Assembly: GCA_965203055.1 (NCBI GenBank)
Contig: OZ241863.1
Span: 2,784,001 to 2,848,000 of the forward strand
Length of the DNA stretch: 64,000 nt
DNA from: Spirochaetia bacterium
GTDB taxonomy: Bacteria > Spirochaetota > Spirochaetia > SZUA-6 > Bin103
Direction: 5' to 3'
Each line of letters begins with the position of its first letter. The stretch's first letter is position 1. Positions 4,358-54,971 of this stretch are shown here, one piece after another. The position numbers and the translations under genes are program-made. The notes below the pieces were generated by a model, which saw nothing but the letters and a program-made list of their open reading frames with translations, did no database searches and was not told the DNA's origin.

Positions 4358-6313
4358 GTGAGGATCAGCTCCCCCGGCGCACGTTCACGTTCCGGCTTCA
4401 CCCTGTTCCTGGCCGCGCTGGCGGTAGCGGGCGCCGGGCTGGTGCTGGCGCGGGAAGTCACCTACGGGCCGGGACTGAGGGGTGACGCCCTCGGCCTGAT
4501 AGCGATGGCCCGCAACCTGCTGGCCGGCGAGGGCCTTACCTATATCAGCGGCCGCGCCCAGACCAACTGGCCGCCGTTCTACCCGCTGCTGCTGGCCGCC
4601 GGCGGCCTGGTGGGGTTCGACCCGCTTCACGTCGCCGGTCCGCTCAACGCGGCCCTCTTCGGGCTGACCGTCTTCATCGCCGGGCGCCACCTGCGCCGGC
4701 GCCTCCGGTCGCGCTTCCTGGCGGTGTGGGCCGCGCTTGCGGTCGTCCTGTCGGTGCCGCTGGCGACGCGGGCGTGGACGGCGATGTCCGAACCGACCTT
4801 CATCCTGCTGGCGGCCGCAGCGCTGATGCAGACCGACCGGTTCCTCACCGAAGGGCGCACTCCGGCCCTGGCGTGGGCCGCGGTCTGCGGCTCGCTGGCG
4901 TTCCTGACCCGCTACGCGGGCGTGGCCGTGCCGTTGGCCGTGGGGCTGGCGCTGCTCTGCCAACCGCGCGCGTCGTTCCGGCAGCGGGCGGGGCGGATCG
5001 CCGCGGTGGCGCTGACCGCCGCCGTTCCCATGGCGCTGTGGCTGCTCCGCAACTACCTGGTCACCGGGCAGCTCATCAAGCAGGTGGCCGACCTGCGGCC
5101 TCCCATCCTGTCCGTGCCGGCGGCGCTCGACGGGGTGCGCGCCACGCTGTGGGAATGGTCGTACCTCGACTTCCTGCCGCCCGCGGTCACCTGGGCGCTG
5201 CTGGCGCTGGCCGCCGCGGCGCTGCTGCCGATCGGCCTGGCGGCGGTCGGAGGGCGGCGCGAGCGGCCGCCGTTCGCGTGGCACGCCGTGCTGGTGTTCG
5301 GCGGTTTCACGCTGCTCTATCTCGTCGTGCTCATCGCTTCGATCACCACCCTCCCGCATCCCTGGCAGTCCCGGTTCCTGGCTCCGGTCTACGTCCCGCT
5401 GCTGGCGATCGCGGCGTTCGCCCTCGATTGGTTGCTGGCCGCGCCGCGGCGGCGGAACGCGGCGGCGGCGCGTCTGCCCGGCGCGGTCCTGATGGTGGCG
5501 CTCTCCCTCTGGACGGCGGCGCAGGTGGTGCGCGGCGGCTTCGAGATCCGCCGCCTCAACTCCGACCAGCCGTACCTCAGCTTCCTGTCGCAACCGTGGG
5601 CCGATTCGGCGACCGTGCGGCATCTCCGGGAGAACCCCGGCGGCGGCACGGTCTACAGCAACGTGCGCAACGCGGCGTACCTGTACGGCGACGGAACCGG
5701 GACCTATCACCGGCTTCCGGTGCGCTGGACGGAGCTGCAGGAGCAGGTGGCGGCGGCGCCGGACGGCGCGCGCCTGATCTGGTTCGACGCCTACCGGGTC
5801 GACCTGGTGTGGGGCCTGGTCCCGTACGACTACGGCGTTGCGCAACTGCGCGCGACCCGGGGCCTGGAACCGGTGGCGGAGTTGGCCGACGGCGCCGTCT
5901 TCACGGTAAACGCGGACTACGCGCCGCCCGCCAACGCGCATCTGGCGGCGTATGCGGCGATCGATGCGGGCGCTCTGGGCGAGCCGGCCGCCCGCGCCGC
6001 CTTCGACCTCTATCTCGACGGTAGGGAGCTGGTCTACCTGAAGAAGCCGTGCAGCCCCGACGACGCCGGCGAGCGGTTCTTCCTGCATCTGTTCCCGGCC
6101 GATGCCGCGGACCTGTCCGACCGCGGCCGGCAGCACGGCTTCGACAACCTGGACTTCGACTTCGCGGACCGCGGCGTGTTCCCGGCCGCCGATACGTGCC
6201 TGGCGCTGGTGCCGCTGCCGGACTACGACCGGGGCATCGACCGCATCCGTACCGGCCAGTGGATTCGCGGCGCAGGCCAGCTCTGGAGCGTGGAGTTCCG
6301 GACCTCCGAGTAG
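4358..6313 (+). CDS. GT-C fold (ArnT/PMT-like) membrane glycosyltransferase with one shared C-terminal domain
   Basis: WPPFYPLLLA, MSEPTF and LAFLTRYAG motifs, many TM helices, C-terminal FDLYLDG...RFFLHLFP...GFDNLDF domain. Confidence 0.8.
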   Translation: MRISSPGARSRSGFTLFLAALAVAGAGLVLAREVTYGPGLRGDALGLIAMARNLLAGEGLTYISGRAQTNWPPFYPLLLAAGGLVGFDPLHVAGPLNAALFGLTVFIAGRHLRRRLRSRFLAVWAALAVVLSVPLATRAWTAMSEPTFILLAAAALMQTDRFLTEGRTPALAWAAVCGSLAFLTRYAGVAVPLAVGLALLCQPRASFRQRAGRIAAVALTAAVPMALWLLRNYLVTGQLIKQVADLRPPILSVPAALDGVRATLWEWSYLDFLPPAVTWALLALAAAALLPIGLAAVGGRRERPPFAWHAVLVFGGFTLLYLVVLIASITTLPHPWQSRFLAPVYVPLLAIAAFALDWLLAAPRRRNAAAARLPGAVLMVALSLWTAAQVVRGGFEIRRLNSDQPYLSFLSQPWADSATVRHLRENPGGGTVYSNVRNAAYLYGDGTGTYHRLPVRWTELQEQVAAAPDGARLIWFDAYRVDLVWGLVPYDYGVAQLRATRGLEPVAELADGAVFTVNADYAPPANAHLAAYAAIDAGALGEPAARAAFDLYLDGRELVYLKKPCSPDDAGERFFLHLFPADAADLSDRGRQHGFDNLDFDFADRGVFPAADTCLALVPLPDYDRGIDRIRTGQWIRGAGQLWSVEFRTSE

Positions 6314-6377
6314 CCCGCCGCGCGAGGCTGGATGGCTGGAAGGAGTTGCTCAACCAAGTGAGCGAGAAGCGAGGTGG

Positions 6378-6779
6378 TCATACGGACCGGATCAGTGAGA
6401 GGTTCGGGATAGCAACGAAATCACGGTCGTGAGTAGCCAGCGGGCACTGCAACAGGATAGCGGTCGCGGCGATCCACGCATCGGCCAACTTCAGCTCCCG
6501 ACCGGCCGATCTACGTTCGCTACGCAAGCGGGCGCAGATCCGGACCAATTCGTCACTTGCCCACACGATCTCGTATTGATCGAGGTGTTCAGCGAGCGTG
6601 GCTTGGCGCCGTCTCTCCCAATTGCTCTTGTATGCCCCGTACCACAGTTCCTCCAAGGTCTGAAACGAGATGAGACTGCGACAGCCCGCCAGTTTTCCCT
6701 CATAGTATGGTGCCCGGCCATCCTGATTGTAGATGATCGAAACGACACTGGTGTCAACGACTACCAGCGGAGCGCTCAT
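6378..6779 (-). CDS. PIN-domain (VapC-like) toxin
   Basis: VVDTSVVS, TLEEL, ADAWIAATA and LATHDRDF. ATG overlaps the upstream stop (TGATG). Confidence 0.9.
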   Translation of the reverse strand: MSAPLVVVDTSVVSIIYNQDGRAPYYEGKLAGCRSLISFQTLEELWYGAYKSNWERRRQATLAEHLDQYEIVWASDELVRICARLRSERRSAGRELKLADAWIAATAILLQCPLATHDRDFVAIPNLSLIRSV

Positions 6780-7627
6780 CAAGCGTCGCGACCTTCTCGG
6801 ATGATGCGCATGAACTCGTCGACATCGAACGGCTCGCTCGTCCTGACCACCTTCTCAGGGTCGAAGACCTTTGGGTCAGGGGCGTTCAACAGCTCGTCGA
6901 GATCATATGGCTGCAGCGACGATCTGGTCCCTTTGAGCTGCCCGACGTGAAAGTCTACCAAGCTGCCATCCGCGGCGAAGGTGCCGCGACCTCTAACCTC
7001 GACATACTGAGTCGCGTGACGCTGCATATCCTTATCCAGTGCGGCATCGAATCGGAGCCGAACCACGGGTTGGCCGTAGTTGTGCAGATGGGCAGTCCTT
7101 CGCTTCCAGTCGACCATCATCAGACGTCCCTGCAAGGTTGCATCGATTTCCTCGGCCGTACTCGGCTCATGGACTTGGCTCATTCTGGTCAGGGTCAACG
7201 AGCTTTCCGTGCCGGGGGAGCTGAGCCGTACTAAATATATTTCCTCCGACAATTCATTCCGCACGGCATTCAGCTCCTTGACGACTCCTTGAGGCAACGA
7301 CGGGTCTTGATCGCCTTTCCACCTCAGAAGGCGGTTCACGGCCCGAGGGCCGTAGTTCCATAGGTCGGGTTGCGCACCAACCGGAGGGGACAGTTCCAGC
7401 ACTGCGACAAGGGAACCCGGAGCCGTGCGCACCAGCCGCAGGGCGCTCTGGTCTCGCGCGAGCTTCGGCGGTCGGCCTCGGCGGGAAGGATCGGCGCCCA
7501 TCAGATGGACCACCATGAGTCGTACCGCCCGCTGCATATGCTCCAAGGTCTTAAGGAGATCCTTGACCGGCAGCCCGGCTTCGCTGACGCGTGGCCCCTT
7601 GAACGCGACATGTAGCTGGTTCTTCAG
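6779..7627 (-). CDS. Hypothetical protein, probable partner/antitoxin of the PIN toxin
   Basis: Frame stays open upstream of the ORF-track start (7546) to a CTG at 7627 preceded by GAGGAGG. Coupled to the PIN gene. Lower GC than its flanks. Confidence 0.6.
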   Translation of the reverse strand: MKNQLHVAFKGPRVSEAGLPVKDLLKTLEHMQRAVRLMVVHLMGADPSRRGRPPKLARDQSALRLVRTAPGSLVAVLELSPPVGAQPDLWNYGPRAVNRLLRWKGDQDPSLPQGVVKELNAVRNELSEEIYLVRLSSPGTESSLTLTRMSQVHEPSTAEEIDATLQGRLMMVDWKRRTAHLHNYGQPVVRLRFDAALDKDMQRHATQYVEVRGRGTFAADGSLVDFHVGQLKGTRSSLQPYDLDELLNAPDPKVFDPEKVVRTSEPFDVDEFMRIIREGRDA

Positions 7628-7778
7628 GGGAACCTCCTCGGTGGATAGGAGTGGACTTTGAGATTGGTCCCGATTCTATGGCCACCCAACGGTCAGCCTC
7701 CAGACGCTGGCCGCAGCATAGCACGCCGCGCACGGCTCGACAGACCACGCTCCGCGTGGGGCGCATCGGCGATCTTGA

Positions 7779-9122
7779 TCACCGGTCTACCGGAGCCTGA
7801 TCCTCGCCGGGGCGCCCGTATCCGGCACCGACGTGGCGGTAACGGTGATGGGCGGCGCACAGCAGGCGGAGATTGTTCGGCTCGGCGCCGCCGCCGCGGG
7901 CATACGGCACGACGTGATCGATCTGCAGCAGGTGCTGCGAGCCGCAGCGGCGCCCGCTGGTGCGGTCCACGTAGCGGCAGCGGCCCCGGTCGCGCCGCCA
8001 GACCTCGCGCTTGACCGCCGCCGGGATGGCGCGGCCGGTCACGCCCGGCTTCGCTGCCGAAGTCCGGGTCCGCGGCGGCGCAGCCGGCTGCGCGCACGCC
8101 GCAGCCTGCCGGTCGAGGCGCCGCGTCTTCGGCGCCGAAGTGGCGTCGCCCGCCGGCTTCGCTGCCGAAGTGTCCGGGCGGTCAGCGGCTTCGTCTCCCG
8201 GCTGCGCCGCCGCCTGAGTCGATACCTTCGCCGCCGAAGGATCGGCGCTGTCCGCGCTCGCCTCCTGCTTCGCTGCTGGGGCAGCGAAGCGAGCCGAGGC
8301 CGCCTGCGTCTTCGGCGCCGAAGTCTGCTCGGCTCCTTTGGCCGGCGCGGCGCGCCGCCCGCGCGGCGGCCGGGCCGGGTCGTGGCGGTCGAGCCCTTCC
8401 CGCACCAGCCCCAGGAGCTGCCCCATCGTCAGGTGCGGGTCGACGTGGGACAGGAGGCCCTGGAGCCGCTCCAAGCCCCGCCGGCACTCATCGTCGATCA
8501 CCGCCTTGAGCTCCCAGCGCCCGCTGCCCAGCGGCCGCACCCGATCCGCCGGCGCCGCCAGCTCCGGGTCCACCTCGGCCAGCAACTGCATCACCTCCCG
8601 GCTGCTCTTGCCGGACGCCTGCTCCACCAGCTCCCGCCGAGCCTCGGAGTCCAGCACCGGCGCCGGCTTCCGCTCCGCCGGCCGCGGCGGCGCCGAGCCC
8701 TCCTGCGATTGCGCGGCTGCCCCGAACCCGGTCCCGCCCGGCGCGCGCCGCGCCGCGCGTTCCTTCTTGCGCTCCTGCCGGTCGAAGGCATGCTGCAACT
8801 GCGCGGCCGCGTTCAGCGTCATCGAGCCATTCTGCAGGCGCTCCCGCACGCCCTCGACGTCCGCGCAGAGCCGCATCGCCTTGATACGCCGCCACGCTGC
8901 GGCGTCGCTGTAGCCCAGCTCGCGCACCGCGTAATCGAACAGGCTGGAGAACCCGCGGCGCAGGTACAGACGGCGCTTATGAATCTCGCGCAGGTGGTCG
9001 ATCACGACGACTTCGAGATGGTGTTCGATGCCGGAAAGTTCCTTGGTCCGCTCCAGCAAGCGGTCGTCTGAGAGGGCGGACACGGTAGTCGTGACGGCCC
9101 CGACGGAAGCATGTTTGCTCAT
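7779..9122 (-). CDS. HNH endonuclease with helical N-terminal domain (DUF222-like architecture)
   Basis: C-terminal RAIPAAVKREVWRRDRGRC...C...IDHVVP..GG...NLRLLCAAHH. N-terminal LYLRRGFSSLFDYAVRELGYS. Confidence 0.9.
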   Translation of the reverse strand: MSKHASVGAVTTTVSALSDDRLLERTKELSGIEHHLEVVVIDHLREIHKRRLYLRRGFSSLFDYAVRELGYSDAAAWRRIKAMRLCADVEGVRERLQNGSMTLNAAAQLQHAFDRQERKKERAARRAPGGTGFGAAAQSQEGSAPPRPAERKPAPVLDSEARRELVEQASGKSSREVMQLLAEVDPELAAPADRVRPLGSGRWELKAVIDDECRRGLERLQGLLSHVDPHLTMGQLLGLVREGLDRHDPARPPRGRRAAPAKGAEQTSAPKTQAASARFAAPAAKQEASADSADPSAAKVSTQAAAQPGDEAADRPDTSAAKPAGDATSAPKTRRLDRQAAACAQPAAPPRTRTSAAKPGVTGRAIPAAVKREVWRRDRGRCRYVDRTSGRRCGSQHLLQIDHVVPYARGGGAEPNNLRLLCAAHHRYRHVGAGYGRPGEDQAPVDR

Positions 9123-9128
9123 GGCATA

Positions 9129-9157
9129 AGTATAATCATGGAAACTACTTGAGTCAA
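9129..9157 (-). promoter_or_regulatory. Sigma70-type promoter of the HNH gene, probably leaderless
   Basis: TTGACT-17nt-TATACT, 6 nt before the ATG. Conserved in copy 2 at 52875-52903. Confidence 0.7.
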
Positions 9158-9543
9158 GTTATTCAGCCCGGAAGATGCCACCTGCGGGCGTGATTCGGCG
9201 GCGCATTTCCAAGCGGCTGGACGTTCCGTCATATGCTACTGCCGAGAACGTCGCCGGCGTCGAGCGGCAGGATTTCTTCTTACGGCCCCAGGCGGCCTCG
9301 TCGATCGGTACCAACAAATTGGAAGTGCGCCCTCCGCGTGACGTGGATTCGCGGCGTGGGCCAGCTCTGGAGCCGAGTTCCGGGCCGCCGAGTAGCCGGC
9401 GGCGACAGCCCCCGTTGCCCGGCGCGCAACCGCGCGCGTAGAATCCGGCAACGATGAAATCGATCTTGGCGGCGCTCGGCGTGACGCGCGTGACGCGACG
9501 GACGCGGACGTTGGTTGACACGCCAAGCAGTTCCGTGTACAAA

Positions 9544-9626
9544 CCGCCGACCGCCGACCGCCGACCGCCGACCGCCGACCGCCGACCGCCGACCGCCGAC
9601 CGCCGACCGCCGACCGCCGACCGCCG
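9544..9626 (+). repeat. Heptanucleotide SSR (CCGCCGA)x11 plus CCGCCG
   Basis: Direct count. Confidence 0.95.
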
Positions 9627-11717
9627 TATGGTCGGTCTGGCTCTAGCCTATCGATAGCGGCTGCGTTTATCGCGCTCGGCGCGGCGCTGGCGTCCGCGGA
9701 CGAGACCGCGGTCCTGCGTCACGGCGCGTCGGTCAGCGAGCGCAACGCGCTGATCGTCTACGTGCGGGTAACGCTGGCGCGCGCGGCGCGGGTGTACGTG
9801 GAGTACGACCACCCGCAGGCCGGGCGCTACCGCACGCCGCTGAGCGAGCCGGGCGCGGCGCATGCCATCCCCCTCGTCAGGCTGCGCCCGGAGACGACCT
9901 ACGACTACACCATCTTCGTGGTGAACGGCTCCGTGGCCGACGGCGCAACGCTGGAAGGCGCGGATGCGGATGCGGCCGCCGGGCCGGGCGGCCGGTTCAC
10001 CACCGGATCGCTGCCGGCGCCCCTCGCCGTCATACCGATGAAGGCGCGCGGCAGGAGCTCGCAGCCGCTCATCTTGTCCGATTACCCGCGCGGGTACTAC
10101 GTCTTCTGGGACGAAGTGGGCGGAATAGTCTGGTACCAGGAAGGGTCCGGCGGCCCCATCACGCAGCTGCCGGCCGGCAACCTGATCTTCTTAGATCGGG
10201 GTCTGGTCGAGATCACCCCCCTTGGAGCAGTGGTCAACCGGTTTGAGCGGCACGGCGCCGCGGGGAATCCCCACCATGAGGTCACCCTGCTCGCCGATGG
10301 CCGCGTGATCTACCCGAGCCGGGAGTTCGTCGTCATCGACGACTCGGCGAACGGCGGGCCGGCGGAGGTCACGTTCAAGACCGACCATCTGCGCGTCTGG
10401 GACCGGGAGAGCGGACGCATCGAGCAGGTCTGGGACTCGAAGGACGCCTGGGACCTGATGGACCCGGCACTGCGCGTGAGGAGACCCGGACCCGGGGAAA
10501 TCTTTGATTGGACGCACCTCAACTCGGTGAGCATCGGTCCGCACGGCAACGTCGTCCTGTCGTTCCGCTGGCGCGATCAGGTGGTCTCACTCAGCGCCGA
10601 CTTGCGGGCGATCGAATGGCAACTGAACGGGCCGGACAGCGATTACCGGTTCCCCAACCCGAACGACCGGTTCTACGGGCAGCACACCGCGGCGCAGCTC
10701 GGCAACGGCAACGTTCTGCTGTTCGACAACGGCTGGGGGCGGCCCGCGGCGGAGGGCGGCGCCTACTCGCGCGCGCTGGAGCTGCGGCTGGACAAGGCGG
10801 CCGGCACCGCGGTGAAAGTGTGGGAATATCGGCCGACGCCGGACATCTACACGAGGGGCAAGGGCAGCGCGTACCGGCTGCGCAGCGGCAATACCCTGAT
10901 CAGCTTCCATGACACGATCGTGGAGGTGGACGCTGCCGGCAACGAAGTGTTCCGGGTCGATAACCTGCCATTGCATGCGGATTGGCCCTTGCCGGCGCGC
11001 TATCGAGCCTACGCCGGCAGCGGGGCGATCATGGGCGAAACCATGCTGCGGCCGCCGGCGGCGGCGCCCGCGCACGCGCGCGCCGCGACGTTCGATAAGG
11101 ACTACTACCTGGCCAAGGAGCGGGCGCGGTTCGAGGAGCTGGCGGCGGCCCTGGACGGCCGGCAGCGCGCCGCCGGCGGGGCGTTCGACATGTATCTGGC
11201 AGGGGACCGGCTGGTATACGCGAAGGCGCCTTGCGCTCCGCAGGATGTCCGGGCGCGCTTCTTTCTGCACGTCTTTCCGGCCGCCGAAGACGATCTGGCC
11301 GCAGACAGCCGCGAGCAGGGTTTCGACAACCTCGACTTCGATTTCTGGACGCGCGGCGTGTTCTGGGACGGCGCCTGCCTGGTGGCCGCGACCCTCCCGG
11401 ACTATGAGATCGCCCGCGTCCGTACCGGTCAGTTCATCCGCAGCGTGCGGCAGCTCTGGAGCGTGGAGTCCGCGGTCGGACCGACCGCGCGGCGCTATCG
11501 GGAAGCGCGCGCCGCGATCGTCTCCGGCGCCTGGAGAGCGCCGGTCGCGCGCGCGGCCTTCGACCTCTACCTCGACGGCCGGGTGCTGGCGTACCACAAG
11601 GAGCCGTGCGCGGCGGAGGACCTGCGAGAGCGGTTCTTCCTGCATGTGGTGCCGGCGGCCGTGGAGGACCTTGCCGCGCACTGTCCAGCGACAATCAAGA
11701 TGAGAATGCGCGGGTAG
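9621..11717 (+). CDS. Secreted aryl-sulfate sulfotransferase (ASST-like), copy 1; 5' end out of frame at the SSR, C-terminus truncated
   Basis: PHHE, WTHLNSV, FYGQHTA and LLFDNG motifs with an N-terminal Ig/FN3-like part. Signal peptide (SIAAAFIALGAALASA) is in frame from 9621 but has no in-frame start. The second shared domain breaks off at ~11680. Confidence 0.75.
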   Translation, partial: PPYGRSGSSLSIAAAFIALGAALASADETAVLRHGASVSERNALIVYVRVTLARAARVYVEYDHPQAGRYRTPLSEPGAAHAIPLVRLRPETTYDYTIFVVNGSVADGATLEGADADAAAGPGGRFTTGSLPAPLAVIPMKARGRSSQPLILSDYPRGYYVFWDEVGGIVWYQEGSGGPITQLPAGNLIFLDRGLVEITPLGAVVNRFERHGAAGNPHHEVTLLADGRVIYPSREFVVIDDSANGGPAEVTFKTDHLRVWDRESGRIEQVWDSKDAWDLMDPALRVRRPGPGEIFDWTHLNSVSIGPHGNVVLSFRWRDQVVSLSADLRAIEWQLNGPDSDYRFPNPNDRFYGQHTAAQLGNGNVLLFDNGWGRPAAEGGAYSRALELRLDKAAGTAVKVWEYRPTPDIYTRGKGSAYRLRSGNTLISFHDTIVEVDAAGNEVFRVDNLPLHADWPLPARYRAYAGSGAIMGETMLRPPAAAPAHARAATFDKDYYLAKERARFEELAAALDGRQRAAGGAFDMYLAGDRLVYAKAPCAPQDVRARFFLHVFPAAEDDLAADSREQGFDNLDFDFWTRGVFWDGACLVAATLPDYEIARVRTGQFIRSVRQLWSVESAVGPTARRYREARAAIVSGAWRAPVARAAFDLYLDGRVLAYHKEPCAAEDLRERFFLHVVPAAVEDLAAHCPATIKMRMRG

Positions 11718-23100: not shown

Positions 23101-24623
23101 GGGCGCACTTCCAAAACGTAGGTAGCGTCAGGCGGCCTGTGGCTGGGCCTCCTGCGGCACCGAGGCGGACAGCAGGCTCGCGTAGTCCCTTTTGAACCGC
23201 CCGCTCTTCACCGAGGTGCAGAGCTGCAGCATCCCCTGCGCCCCTCCCAACGACCAGATCATCCCGCTCCCCTTCAGCCGCGCCCCCACCATGTTCTTGC
23301 ACGTACTCTCCACCGCCCCACTGCCGATCGGCAGCCCCTCCCGCCGGTACCGCCGGTAGTCCATCCGTCCCTGGTTGCTCTTCAAGTAGTTGATCTCCCC
23401 CTGCACCTCGTGCCGCTGCCGGGCACTCAACCCCCCGCCGTCGCGCAACTCCTCCAGCTCCTCTATCACTTCCCCCGCCCGACTGCCGCGCAGCATCGTC
23501 CGCCACCTCCGAAAGCATTCCTCTGCCTGCTTGCTCCTCTCCCCGTAGACGCTCCGACTCGCCTCCGCGAGATGCTCGCAGGCGTGCCAGAAATCCAGGA
23601 TGTACCACACCCGCAGCCCCCCTGCCGCCCAGGTCTCCGCCCGATCCCAAATCCATCCCGCCCCGTCGGCCAGCACTACCAGTTGCCGCGCCGCCCCCTC
23701 GCCGCAGCGCCGTTTCAGCTCCACTTCGATGCGCGGGAAGAACTGGTCGGCATGCTCGCTCGCCGCCACGTAGCTCGGCTTGCTGCTGCACTGCGCCTCC
23801 TGCTCCTCAGCGTCCCACTCCACCGCCGCCACCACCGCCACCTTGGCGTCCCGGTACTCCCGCTCGTAGCGCTTCTTCCCGGCATCATCTACCCGCTCCT
23901 TGCCGCGCACCGGCACCTTCCCCGCGTCGATGCATACCGCCACCGTCCCGCCAATCGGCTCGTGCAGCTCCGGCCCCGCCGCAGTCTGCTGGTAGTTGTC
24001 CACCTCCTGCTGGCGCTGCCGTTCCAACCCCTCCGTTACCTCCTGCACCATCGTGAACGCCTTCTTCTCCGACACCAGCTCCCCGCCGTCGGCGCGGAAC
24101 ACCTCGTGAAACTGCCGCAGACTCTCTGCGTGCGCCTGGCGCGCTACGAACTGACTCAGAAAGTACTGGCAGCCCGGCGTATGGCCGCGCTTGATGCCGA
24201 GCCGCTCATCCAACGGCGCCCAGCCCTGGCCGCTACCGCTGGCGTAGTAGGCCCGTTCGTAGGGTACCGTCCCGAACAGTCCGTGCAGGGTCTTGGAGCG
24301 GTGGCCGACAAACCGATACGACACCCCGTTGCGCTGGACCGTGGCGCCGCGGTAATCGCGGCCCAGTTCCTTGAACCACTCCACCATGGCGGCGCGGCAC
24401 AGGCGCACCAAGCACTTGAGGAGACTCAGTTCTGCCCGCAACAGGTCGTGGGGACCGCTAGCGCGGCCCAGTTCGAGACCACAGGTGGCCTTGCAGTAGT
24501 TGAGAATCTCGGTTACCAATGAATCACACATATGTTGCCCTCCCAGTGACGGCCTGATGTTACATCACCTGTCGCTGGGAGGGCTTCTCTATTTGGGCCT
24601 ACCTACAAATTGGAAGTGCGCCC
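23101..24623. mobile_element. ISKra4-family insertion sequence
   Basis: Terminal inverted repeats GGGCGCACTTCCAA / TTGGAAGTGCGCCC. Flanking (g/c)CAGGAAG duplication of the target gene sequence. Confidence 0.9.
23128..24531 (-). CDS. ISKra4-family DDE transposase
   Basis: CIDAG, VLADGAGWIW, ILDFWHACEHL and RMDY..YR..GLPIGSGAVESTCK. Confidence 0.9.
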   Translation of the reverse strand: MCDSLVTEILNYCKATCGLELGRASGPHDLLRAELSLLKCLVRLCRAAMVEWFKELGRDYRGATVQRNGVSYRFVGHRSKTLHGLFGTVPYERAYYASGSGQGWAPLDERLGIKRGHTPGCQYFLSQFVARQAHAESLRQFHEVFRADGGELVSEKKAFTMVQEVTEGLERQRQQEVDNYQQTAAGPELHEPIGGTVAVCIDAGKVPVRGKERVDDAGKKRYEREYRDAKVAVVAAVEWDAEEQEAQCSSKPSYVAASEHADQFFPRIEVELKRRCGEGAARQLVVLADGAGWIWDRAETWAAGGLRVWYILDFWHACEHLAEASRSVYGERSKQAEECFRRWRTMLRGSRAGEVIEELEELRDGGGLSARQRHEVQGEINYLKSNQGRMDYRRYRREGLPIGSGAVESTCKNMVGARLKGSGMIWSLGGAQGMLQLCTSVKSGRFKRDYASLLSASVPQEAQPQAA

Positions 24624-51402: not shown

Positions 51403-51542
51403 CACCCGCCGCCGTAAGCGGGGCGCCCGGCGAGTTGCCGGCGCGCGCGGGGGCGCATTTCCAAAAAATGCAGGTAAGCGTCGGGCCGCTTGGCGGCCAA
51501 GCCCAGTCCCCAGTGTTAGATGAGGGTTCTCGGCGATCTTGA

Positions 51543-52868
51543 TCACCGGTCTACCGGCGCCTGACGATCTTCGCCGGGGCGCCCGAATTCGGCGCCGGCG
51601 TGGCGGTAGCGGTGATGGGCGGCGCACAGCAGGCGGAGATTGTTCGGCTCGGCGGCGCCGCCGTAGGCATACGGCACGACGTGATCGATCTGCAGCAGGT
51701 GTTGCGAGCCGCAACGGCGCCCGCTGGTGCGGTCCACGTAGCGGCAGCGGCCGCGGCGCGGTCGCGCCGCCACACCTCGCGCTTGACCGCCGCCGGATGG
51801 CGCGGCCGGGCACGCCCGTCTTCGCTGCCGAAGTCCGGGGCCGCGGCGCGGCAGCCGGCTTCCGCACGCCGTCGCAGCCTGCCGGCCCAGGCGCCGCGTC
51901 TTCGGCGCCGAAGTGGTGTCGGTCGCCGGCTTCGCTGCCGAAGTGTCCGAGCGGTCAGCGGCTTCGTCTCCCGGCTCCGCCGGCGCCTGAGCCGATACCT
52001 TCGCCGCCGAAGGAGCGGCGCTGTCTGCGCCGCGAGCCGAAGCCGCCTGCGTCTTCGCCGCCGAAGTTTGCTCGGCGCCTTTGGCCGAAGCGGGGCGCCG
52101 CCCACGCGGCGGCCGGGCCGGGTCGTGGCGGTCGAGCCCTTCCCGCACCAGCCGTCCCATGAGCTGCCCCATCGTCATTTGCGGATCGACGTGGGACAGG
52201 AGGCCCTTGAGCCGCTCCAAGCCCCGCCGGCACTCATCGTCGATCACCGCCTTGAGTTCCCAGCGCCCGCCGCCGAGGGGCCGCACCCGATCCGCCGCCG
52301 CCGCCAGCTCCGGGTCCACCTCGGCCAGCAACTGCATCACCTCCCGGCTGCTCTTGCCGGCCGCCTGCTCCACCAGCTCCCGCCGCGCCTCCGGGTCCAG
52401 CACCGGCGCCGGCTTCCGCTCCGCCGGCCGCGGCGGCGCCGAGCCGTTCTGCGACTGAGCGGCAGCCCCGAACCCGGTCCCGCCCGGCGCGCTACGCGCC
52501 GAGCGTTCCTTCTTGCGCTCGTGCCGGTCGAAGGCGTTCTGCAACTGCGCGGCTGCGTTCAGCGTCATCGTGCCATTCCGCAGGCGCTCGCGCACGCCAT
52601 CGACGTCCGCGCAGAGCCGCATCGCCTTGATGCGCCGCCACGCCGCGGCGTCGCTGTAACCCAGTTCGCGCACCGCATAATCGAACAGGCTCGAGAACCC
52701 GCGGCGCAGATACAGGCGGCGCTTCTGAATCTCCCGCAGGTGGTCGATGACGACCACTTCGAGATGGTGTTCGATGCGGGAAAGTTCCTTGGTCCGCTCC
52801 AGCAAACGGTCGTCTGAGAGGGCGGAAACGGTAGTCGTGACGGCCCCGTCGGAAGCATGATTGTTCAT
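51543..52868 (-). CDS. HNH endonuclease, copy 2 (compensating frameshifts at ~51760-51865)
   Basis: Highly similar to 7779..9122. AAVKREVWRRD is read in another frame. Confidence 0.8.
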   Translation of the reverse strand: MNNHASDGAVTTTVSALSDDRLLERTKELSRIEHHLEVVVIDHLREIQKRRLYLRRGFSSLFDYAVRELGYSDAAAWRRIKAMRLCADVDGVRERLRNGTMTLNAAAQLQNAFDRHERKKERSARSAPGGTGFGAAAQSQNGSAPPRPAERKPAPVLDPEARRELVEQAAGKSSREVMQLLAEVDPELAAAADRVRPLGGGRWELKAVIDDECRRGLERLKGLLSHVDPQMTMGQLMGRLVREGLDRHDPARPPRGRRPASAKGAEQTSAAKTQAASARGADSAAPSAAKVSAQAPAEPGDEAADRSDTSAAKPATDTTSAPKTRRLGRQAATACGSRLPRRGPGLRQRRRACPAAPSGGGQARGVAARPRRGRCRYVDRTSGRRCGSQHLLQIDHVVPYAYGGAAEPNNLRLLCAAHHRYRHAGAEFGRPGEDRQAPVDR

Positions 52869-52974
52869 GACATAAGTATAATCATGGAAACCATTTGAGT
52901 CAAGCTCTTCGGCCCGGAAGATGCCACCTGAGGGCGTGACGCGGCGGCGCATTTCCAAGCGGCTGGACGTTCCG

Positions 52975-54810
52975 TCAGATGCTACTGCCGAGAATGTCGC
53001 CGGCGTCGACAGGGCGCGATCTGCCGGGTACCGGAGGGCCGGCGCCGGTGCCGGCGCGGGCTTCGGCGGCGGCGCGGTCGGCGTTGAGGGCGAGGAGGCG
53101 GGCGAGCACTTCGTCGCGGACTTCGTCGGGCCAGCGCCAGCGGTAGGGCTTCTTCTTGCGGCCCCAGGCGGCCTCGTCGATTGCGTAGTCGAGGAGCAGG
53201 TCGCAGTCGGTGGGAATGTCGCTCCAGCCGTAGGCGTCGAGCACGGCGCGGTCCATGGCGGCGTGCAGCTCGCGCAGTTCGGCGATGCGCGGGTCGGTCT
53301 CGTAGAGATCGTGGAAGCGGTTGTAGGTTTGGGTCATGCCCTCGTCGTTGTCCACCATGAGCGCCGCGCGGTGCTCGTAGTACGCCTTGCCGGCGGCTTC
53401 GAGGGCGGGATGAGTGTCCCAGCCTTCCGGGAACGGGAAAGTCTCGAAGCAGTCGGAGGGGGTGTAGCGGAGCCGTTCTTCCAGTGACGATCCGAAGAAC
53501 GGACCCAAACTTCGTGAGGGCGGGATTGTAATGCGCAGATTGCGGCGTACTAAGTCAACGGAAAGACGATCATGGATTCCGCGTACACCATGTCTCTTGG
53601 GAGGAAGGTAAATGCCGCGTGTTGGCCGACACGGGAGACTACCAGCACTCGGTCCAGGCCAGCGATGGCGGCGTAGAGGCCCGGTCGCTTTTCGGCGTAA
53701 TGCCACCAACGCTCTCGAAGCGCTTTGCGGTTCTGGACGTCGCGCTCTGGCTTGGTCTTCGTCTCGACGATCCTCAGCAAGTCCGGCCAATCGGCCGCTA
53801 CCGGTTCGGGGTAGTCGTGCGGCGCAAGCGGACGGCGCCGCAACGCTCGCCTTCTCTCCGCGCCAGCCGCGGCCCACGACTCTCCGATCTTCGCCCGGTG
53901 CAAGGGCCAGTCGTGAAAGTTGATGACGTAGCGATGGTGGGCGTGAGTCGGACTGGTGTTCACCTCCTCGCCGCCGACGTAGGGGAAGATCACTTCCCGG
54001 TTGCGCGGGTCCTGATCGATCAGCCGCCGCATCTCGGCGAGCGGTGATGCGACGCCTTTCTTGTCGGTGTCGTCGAAGGTAAAGCCCATGCCGAGCACGA
54101 TGCTGCCCTGAAAGCTCTTGCCGGCGTTGGCCGCAAGCCGCACCGGGTCGGCGTGGCCGCCGCGATGGAACAGAAACGCCGTGATATGGTCCACCGGTGC
54201 GCGGTCGAGCATCCTCTTGCCGGCAAGCTCGCCCTTGGCGAGGTGCACGACGCTGACCACGACCGCCGCATCGCCCGGCCCCGGTGGCGCGCAGCAGGCG
54301 CTCGGCGCGCCCCTGGGCGGATGCGTCCAGCCCGCCGGCGCCGGGCGCCGGGCGGTCGAACTCCTGGCCGGCGGCCAGCACCTGCACCAGCAGTTGCCAC
54401 GGGGAGTCGCCGCTGCCGGGATCGCGCTCGCGCACCGCGAAGTCGGGACGCAGGGTCTCGCCGTAATCGGGCAGCGGCAACGTGAGCTCTTCAGGGATCG
54501 GAGTTTCTTCGGTGAAGCCGGCGTAGCCCCGGGGCGAGAAGCCCCAACCGAGCACCGCGGCGGCGAACTCGCGGAAGTCGCGGATGCATGCGATAGGCTG
54601 CTGGTCGGGAGCGAGCGGAGCGAGCTCGCGTTCCTCGGTGCAGCCGGCGAGCAGCGCCTGCCGGTGGGAATCCTGGCGGTTGACGAACGCGCCCGCCTTG
54701 AGCAGCGCCGGCGGCGACACCACCAGACCGTGCGGCTGGATGAACCCCAGCCATTCCAGGTGCGCGCGCGTGTTCGGATCGGCAGCAGGCATCGTTTCAG
54801 CAGCCCTCAT
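52975..54810 (-). pseudogene. Internally deleted type IIG / Eco57I-MmeI-like DNA methyltransferase (DISARM/BREX-type large methylase)
   Basis: N-terminal HLEWLGFIQPHGLVVSPPAL is joined at ~54280 to PGDAAVVVSVVHL, then SFQGSIVLGMGF and LRYTPSDCFETFPFP. Catalytic core is missing and frameshifts are present. Confidence 0.75.
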
Positions 54811-54971
54811 AATAGACTACCCGACGACCAAGGGGACGCAGGTAGCGCCGGGCGGCATAGCGGACAGGAGGCTTCTTGCCAGGGTCTACCAACAATTGGA
54901 AGTGCGCCCTGCGCTGCCCGCGCGGGCGCGGCGTTGCGGCGGCGCGCGGCATCGGCTATGGTATCGTTGCT

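Follow-up and report, generated by a model that had tools for sequence, protein, structure and literature searches.

The stretch analysed here (the window, 64,000 nucleotides of a Spirochaetia bacterium, assembly GCA_965203055.1, contig OZ241863.1, positions 2,784,001 to 2,848,000) contains a unit of 1,574 bp (7759-9332) whose sole long open reading frame (ORF) with a family match encodes an HNH nuclease and whose ends resemble those of an insertion sequence (IS) of the ISKra4 family resident in the same window. The genome of the window (G000; other genomes are likewise cited by number) is a single contig of 4.56 Mb with 68.8% G+C, and genome-wide counts given below refer to it. The unit starts with GGGCGCAT at 7759, ends in ...ACAAATTGGAAGTGCGCCC at 9332 and is bounded on both sides by TCCGCGTG (7751-7758 and 9333-9340), in agreement with the perfect 8-bp flanking duplication claimed in a preliminary description of this DNA. 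Likewise the lone 447-amino-acid HNH gene with its own consensus promoter, also claimed there, was recovered, the ORF lying on the reverse strand (7779-9122) with no transposase gene in the unit and with the Pfam HNH domain matched at residues 392-429 (E 1.1e-6). A promoter-like site on the same strand, TTGACT-17-TATACT, has 10 of 12 matches and ends 6 nt before the HNH ATG such that the transcript would be leaderless, with the promoter search returning two sites in the region against a mean of 0.1 in shuffled sequences (Table 1).

The resident IS encodes a transposase of 467 amino acids that passes the NCBIfam ISKra4 model NF033572 (216.8 bits, cut-off 205), with approximately nine transposase copies detected by tblastn, seven of them 100% identical. 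The right end of the IS (24605-24623) is the same as that of the unit over 19 nt, extending the identity of 16 nt (AATTGGAAGTGCGCCC, 24608-24623) that had first been reported, and alignment of the IS with the HNH unit covers about 48 nt at the left end, reaching past the transposase stop codon, and about 24 nt at the right. The inverted repeats and 8-9 bp duplication of the ISKra4 family are present in the HNH family, and the ISKra4-family DDE transposase is absent from the HNH unit and present in the resident IS. As such the ends of the HNH units match an autonomous IS of their own genome with no transposase in the unit, which is also the case in G003 (see below).

Table 1. Coordinates of the unit, the resident IS and the second family member in the window.
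Feature	Position	Strand	Remarks
Left target-site duplication TCCGCGTG	7751..7758	.	Family-wide duplication test
Left inverted repeat, remnant tip GGGCGCA	7759..7765	+	About 72 bp missing behind it; alignment with 12 full copies
3' tail of HNH core module, TCAAGATCGCCGA on gene strand	7766..7778	-	Boundary as in end-less G011 copies
HNH nuclease gene, 447 amino acids: N-terminal helical DNA-binding-like domain, middle domain, low-complexity linkers, C-terminal HNH	7779..9122	-	
Promoter TTGACT-17-TATACT; -35 box within palindrome ACTTGACTCAAGT	9129..9157	-	Kept in 7/7 end-less G011 copies
Right arm, like a miniature inverted-repeat transposable element (MITE): internal second left-end motif (CGGCGCATTTCCAAGCGG from 9199) to right inverted repeat	9199..9332	+	
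Right inverted repeat GGGCGCACTTCCAATTTGTTGGTAC, first 19 nt identical to IS right end	9308..9332	-	
Right target-site duplication TCCGCGTG	9333..9340	.	
Resident ISKra4-family IS, 1,523 bp, candidate helper	23101..24623	-	Transposase 23128-24531, 467 amino acids
Second window member	51451..54909	-	HNH ORF ends 51543, longest reading (TTG start) to 52958; no flanking duplication

The preliminary description needs correction at the left end of the window copy, which proved to be much reduced. Alignment with 12 full-length copies revealed that GGGCGCA is joined straight to TCGGCGATCTTGA, with approximately 72 bp missing and only a 7-8 nt tip of the inverted repeat remaining at the left, while the right end is intact. 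In two further copies, deletions that differ from this one lie directly behind an identical tip. Since both copies of the TCCGCGTG duplication are preserved, the loss is most simply read as an internal deletion that followed insertion. A copy with the identical deletion is also present in G011, a genome of another genus, at a locus that is 95% identical to the window over 4.3 kb (window 6282-10644, G011:C1:4023264-4027610) with hardly a difference in the left flank of 1,459 bp; compared stretches elsewhere in the two genomes are 77-87% identical, suggesting that this segment has been recently exchanged.

The unit belongs to a large family. With a full copy as the blastn query 63 homologous loci were found in the genome, 35 of them keeping the full left end, and the HNH protein was located by tblastn at about 45 places (60-93% identity) compared with the nine or so copies of the transposase. 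The 14-nt end motif GGGCGCACTTCCAA occurs 20 times exactly on each strand, rising to 64 and 78 occurrences when up to two mismatches are allowed, and the genome search for these ends together with the HNH gene that had been proposed as a check thus yielded HNH loci bounded by them. Full copies share one order, with a left end (GGGCGCATTTCCAAAATGTAGGTAAGCGTCAGGCCGC..., about 80 bp) followed by the reverse-strand HNH gene, its promoter, an internal second left-end motif, 60-270 bp of further sequence and the right end. The left arm retains only some 20-25 nt of the 3' end of the transposase gene, the non-coding right arm varies from about 60 to 270 bp among copies, and internally deleted derivatives of 531 and 630 bp were identified. 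In the second member within the window the right arm is enlarged by about 1.9 kb and holds an ORF of 611 amino acids (52975-54810, reverse strand) with no Pfam match. Short remnants of the C-terminal words of this ORF (AAWGRKKK...) are also seen in the right arm of further units, among them the first window copy (9260-9300), and so the right arm seems to be derived from an IS derivative that carried the 611-amino-acid gene.

Target duplications were assessed in the 20 complete units for which both tips could be located, with a perfect 8-bp duplication in five and a match of at least 7/8 or 8/9 in ten, compared with 1/380 perfect and 4/380 near-perfect when left and right flanks were paired across different units. 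Duplications of 8-9 bp were likewise found at the IS copies of this genome (n=9). These data bear on the proposal that the border repeats are a product of chance and that the unit is an ordinary chromosomal HNH gene lying beside a solitary IS end, to which hardly any credence can be given. The match of the left end to the IS over only 7-8 nt would fit such a proposal, but the exact 8-bp repeat abuts both tips, 35 loci hold the full left end in register, and both the control for the duplications (1/380) and the family census contradict it.

Elements of the ISKra4 group are described as inserting 13-17 bp from sigma-A promoters (Guerillot et al., 2014; PMC3942029). Counting as -35-like any reverse hexamer with at least a 5/6 match to TGTCAA, four of the nine IS copies have such a hexamer at a distance of exactly 16 nt from the left tip. 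Among the 35 HNH units there are nine in which it ends 13-16 nt from this tip, compared with 11 hits over the other 66 offsets, which amounts to approximately 13 times the background rate per offset. From these positions the HNH family shares with the IS and the ISKra4 group a tendency to insert some 16 bp from a -35 box. With about 35 independent insertions, the family confirms for a new lineage that ISKra4-group elements target sites close to promoters. One IS copy (G000 623721-625243) has inserted into an HNH unit, placing it 16 bp upstream of the HNH promoter's -35 box with the duplication GCCCGGAA, and uninterrupted HNH units represent the empty sites for this copy.

A parallel arrangement exists in G003, where two HNH loci are 96.9% identical over 2.2 kb with the ends GGGTGCATTCCGTCACTGTGG... 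and GGGTGCATTCTTTCTCTGTGGCACCTGCGGC. The G003 units are 2.2-2.5 kb in length, with a right end the same as that of G003's own ISKra4-like IS over 31 nt and a near-identical left end, and the transposase of this IS is 54% identical to the resident transposase of G000. Each unit consists of an IS-left fragment, the HNH module and an internally deleted IS in which the left end is joined to the right end, with the HNH gene in the opposite orientation to that in G000. These ends were present at six of the nine G003 loci examined, perfect 9-bp duplications flank two units, and a -35-like hexamer lies at 16 nt in all four complete units. Mobilisation in trans is argued for most strongly by the fact that, between G000 and G003, the ends of the HNH units change along with the ends of the resident IS. 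The arrangement in G003, being different, also suggests a second, separate capture, such that the nuclease has apparently been captured twice by ISKra4-type ends.

Taken together we consider it likely that the unit is a member of a family of non-autonomous transposons of about 1.7 kb that is derived from ISKra4-family (Mutator-like DDE) IS ends, is mobilised in trans and carries a selfish nuclease module as its cargo. A full member would comprise the left IS end of about 80 bp with the last bases of the transposase gene, the HNH gene with its leaderless promoter, the internal second left end and the right IS end. An ISKra4-group DDE transposase supplied in trans would cut at the outer ends, with the released unit being pasted about 16 bp upstream of promoters to leave duplications of 8-9 bp, and the resident IS, or its ancestor, may have been the helper. 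How the gene was captured is best guessed as promoter-seeking IS derivatives landing beside the strong HNH promoter, the window copy subsequently losing the stretch behind its left tip. The non-autonomous, trans-mobilised transposon put forward in the preliminary description is thus supported in part, by the family, its ends, duplications and landing sites and by the matching units and IS in G003, but not in that the window copy is gutted and that no recent moving by the present IS was seen.

A number of observations weigh against this interpretation. A clear duplication is lacking in 10 of the 20 complete units, and no -35-like hexamer is found at the expected distance in 26 of 35 units, nor in the window copy. 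The HNH copies are 74-95% identical to one another (median 90.7%, with no pair of units above 94.8%) whereas the IS copies are near-identical, and so recent moving of the family by the present IS is not visible. As most of its left inverted repeat has been lost the window copy should no longer be movable and is probably a decayed, immobile fossil. An empty site retaining a single copy of the duplication, proposed earlier as a check, was not found among paralogous sequences for 18 units (200-bp flanks against the genome, no adjacent pair), nor among orthologous sequences in G011, where the queries were the left flanks of one IS and of two units whose duplications are perfect; one flank aligned at 87% as far as 15 nt short of the element with its right flank absent from that locus, the others matched paralogues, and two of the comparisons fell in rearranged contexts. 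In public sequencing runs contigs of X1, X13 and X14 cross the occupied left junction and, among the 15 joints listed out of these and 129 more, none skips 7759-9332, although these contigs are short and fragmented and have no bearing on absence. G011 holds units with these ends yet no ISKra4-family transposase was detected there with either the protein or the NF033572 model. More widely, a search at E <= 1e-10 gave no transposase in G011, G012, G017, G007 or G015, with the NF033572 model giving no match in G011, G007 and G015, a fragment in G012 and matches of 28-30 bits in G017.

To these must be added the many HNH genes that lack the ends altogether. This was the case at 7 of 10 loci examined in G011, 4 of 4 in G012, 7 of 7 in both G017 and G019, 4 of 4 in G021, 3 of 3 in G020 and 2 of 2 in both G022 and G023. 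Of 23 further genomes from the bacterial family, 21 contain the HNH gene in multiple copies, most of them with 20-78 matches (36 in G011, 30 in G012, 54 in G017 and 42 in G007), while among the other seven families of the order a match, and a weak one, was found in one of 17 genomes. The exact end motif is by comparison narrowly distributed, with 56 occurrences in G000, seven in G011, four in G010, one each in G015 and G022 and none in the other 36 genomes. A search of other genomes for inverted repeats by exact 10-mers gave GC-rich noise only. In the seven end-less G011 copies homology is confined to a stretch that begins 2 nt upstream of the -35 box and ceases shortly past the stop codon, and these boundaries coincide with those of the core lying inside the ends in G000. 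Since the modules are multi-copy without ends the gene would spread in some way independent of ISKra4 ends. Gene and promoter therefore form a discrete selfish module that is not made by the transposon and is multi-copy with or without ends. The idea that the transposon selectively retained its cargo, as first described, is not supported, with the HNH gene and promoter multiplying without ends, including in G011, G012 and G017 where no credible ISKra4 transposase was found. That the end-less copies are former shells that have decayed was also considered, and dropped because homology stops sharply at the core boundaries at a synonymous divergence of only about 0.1.

The encoded protein was characterised by its pattern of substitution, its relatives and its predicted structure. 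The ratio of nonsynonymous to synonymous substitution rates (dN/dS) was estimated from 16 intact full-length copies (120 pairs), drawn from 25 ORFs of at least 425 amino acids of which nine with altered ends or starts were dropped; restriction to intact ORFs removes nonsense changes but cannot create a contrast between domains. The ratio was 0.43 overall, 0.16 for residues 1-125, 0.34 for residues 166-250 and 0.37 for the HNH domain, compared with 0.82-1.0 in the two low-complexity linkers, and by this measure the nuclease gene is under purifying selection. Relatives are numerous, with 17,359 representative clusters at E <= 0.001 and 813 at E <= 1e-30. Neither the window protein nor its first 251 residues matched Pfam DUF222 (PF02720) up to E 5, three of 18 distant relatives touched this family below its cut-off of 24.4 bits (16.7-21.2 bits, E 2e-4 to 5e-3), and in the Atlas the first 260 residues adjoin a DUF222 cluster at 0.94; judged by these matches the protein is at most a distant DUF222/REP13E12-like relative. 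The AlphaFold model has a mean predicted local distance difference test score (pLDDT) of 76, exceeding 90 in three domains. Predicted residues 32-187 resemble the DNA-binding domains of KorB/ParB (Z 5.1-6.5), residues 200-255 resemble ribbon-helix-helix proteins (Z 4.3-4.7) and the HNH domain is closest to McrA, phage HNH and the IscB HNH (Z 6.7-7.1), with Z below 8 in such comparisons possibly reflecting merely a common arrangement. Foldseek gave no match in the PDB at E <= 0.001, the PDB sequence profile matched the HNH domain only, and PADLOC returned only a weak REase_II match over the HNH stretch. On the model a sequence-specific DNA-binding endonuclease would be the likeliest identity.

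The end-less copies and the make-up of the protein raise the possibility that mobility is conferred by the HNH protein itself, within an autonomous element of the REP13E12 type that consists of promoter, ORF and short tail and has no transposase. The ISKra4-like ends would then be bystanders, left by promoter-seeking IS and MITE copies that land next to the strong HNH promoter, an explanation we regard as rather doubtful. The core boundaries are equally sharp with and without ends, the wealth of matches in 21 of 23 family genomes includes the three in which no credible ISKra4 transposase was found, DNA-binding-like and HNH domains are under purifying selection, and an IS copy landing 16 bp from an HNH promoter provides an example of how such ends could come to lie beside the gene. 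Set against this, the duplications in G000 and G003 flank the whole unit bounded by terminal inverted repeats and not the core, and the landing preference is that of the IS. The end-less G011 copies, moreover, showed no inverted or terminal repeats in local alignments of upstream against downstream sequence, a partial check with the ORF mislocated in three of the seven, for which coding sequence stood in for the downstream stretch; the flanks of end-less copies share no target motif or duplication. The same flanks were considered in relation to a free-standing HNH homing endonuclease gene, for which insertion at one conserved target with occupied and empty alleles would be expected. We know of no HNH protein that makes 8-9 bp duplications, which also counts against this explanation. 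A mobile HNH gene would account for the end-less copies and is compatible with trans-mobilisation of the copies that have ends.

An alternative role for the nuclease is that of a helper for the DDE transposon, cutting emptied donor sites or unoccupied homologous sites in the manner of TnpB or IscB but with no guide RNA, which appears improbable. In its favour, ISKra4-derived ends have captured the HNH gene in two genomes, with its orientation reversed between them, which suggests some benefit from the pairing; copies with ends also keep the gene conserved, and the structural neighbours of its HNH domain include that of IscB. However, the protein has no RuvC domain and touches the IscB model NF040563 over the HNH stretch only, with 23.6 bits against a cut-off of 175. 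In the RNA searches no Rfam family reached its cut-off, with three rows at chance level (E 0.1-0.92), and the right arm, which varies in length as noted above, folds no better than shuffled sequences (z -0.52). On these results the likeness to TnpB/IscB elements drawn in the preliminary description was not sustained. Furthermore a protein-only nuclease cannot recognise many different empty sites, and the gene thrives without any such transposon.

More speculatively, and with less confidence than we place in trans-mobilisation of the units with ends, the DUF222-like HNH gene with its promoter might be a new kind of transposase-free self-propagating gene that reaches tens of copies per genome throughout a bacterial family and has been repeatedly taken up by promoter-seeking ISKra4 derivatives, giving a two-layer parasite in which the nuclease may aid persistence. 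If true, such a gene would also explain the REP13E12-type repeats of actinobacteria.

The surroundings of the insertion are themselves repetitive. About 50 nt to its left (7696-7746) have several further copies, of 82-92% identity, elsewhere in G000 and in G011 and may be a small dispersed repeat, while to the right of the unit a run of about nine copies of the heptamer CCGACCG (9540-9600) is also present in the G011 orthologue. A PIN-domain gene (6378-6782, reverse strand, E 6.8e-16) overlaps the end of a 255-amino-acid ORF with no family match, the two together looking like a toxin-antitoxin pair. Two ORFs of 651 amino acids with similar C-terminal words (4358-6313 and 9762-11717, also at 12-18 kb) flank the unit, and their paralogues at several places in the genome gave many contig joints in the public runs. 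DNA near-identical to window 6300-10800 is present in runs labelled as sponge and marine metagenomes from several studies, with a read depth over the HNH unit 50-100 times that of the left flank, as expected for a multi-copy repeat.

No publication on an ISKra4-derived unit with an HNH gene, nor on the spread of DUF222-HNH genes, was found among open-access papers and preprints, and comparison was made with four known systems. MITEs and mobile insertion cassettes, or 'transporter IS', consist of IS ends with duplications and no transposase, passenger genes being possible. The HNH units are alike in that copies outnumber the autonomous partner and in having internally deleted derivatives. Non-autonomous IS derivatives are usually empty, as are MITEs, or carry cargo useful to the host; the passenger here is instead a conserved multi-copy selfish gene with its own promoter, which members of one IS group have apparently captured twice. 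The pairing of this nuclease gene with ISKra4-type ends arose in two genomes, each with a different arrangement.

REP13E12 of Mycobacterium tuberculosis was reportedly described by Gordon et al. in 1999, and to our knowledge REP13E12/DUF222-HNH genes have not been found inside IS ends. In so far as these genes of M. tuberculosis and other actinobacteria are described in the available accounts, the present gene is alike in being repeated and multi-copy, about 1.4 kb long, with a product that is helical in its N-terminal domain and ends in an HNH domain. Of the features that define DUF222-HNH/REP13E12 it has the C-terminal HNH and the multi-copy state, but the window protein gives no match to Pfam DUF222. 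REP13E12 and DUF222-HNH are named together in PMC10589994 and listed in a preprint (bioRxiv 10.1101/2024.10.15.618387).

The ISKra4-group IS (p-MULT 4, Mutator-like DDE), as characterised in PMC3942029, are alike in their terminal inverted repeats, their 8-9 bp duplications and their distance of about 16 bp from a -35 box, and four ISKra4 elements are mentioned there as carrying extra genes of unknown function. The HNH units differ in that they have no transposase gene, with the HNH nuclease as their sole gene, and in that they outnumber the IS copies several-fold and are far older. The fourth system comprises the tnpB-only and iscB-only IS200/IS605 elements moved by TnpA in trans (Meers et al., bioRxiv 10.1101/2023.03.14.532601), which are likewise transposase-less, keep a nuclease and have their helper elsewhere. 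By comparison with these the HNH units would rely on a DDE rather than an HUH helper, have inverted repeats and duplications, lack a RuvC domain and give no indication of a guide RNA. As such the system offers a tractable means of asking how multi-copy DUF222-like HNH genes, such as REP13E12 in M. tuberculosis, spread, and whether nucleases besides the RNA-guided TnpB and IscB help transposons to persist.

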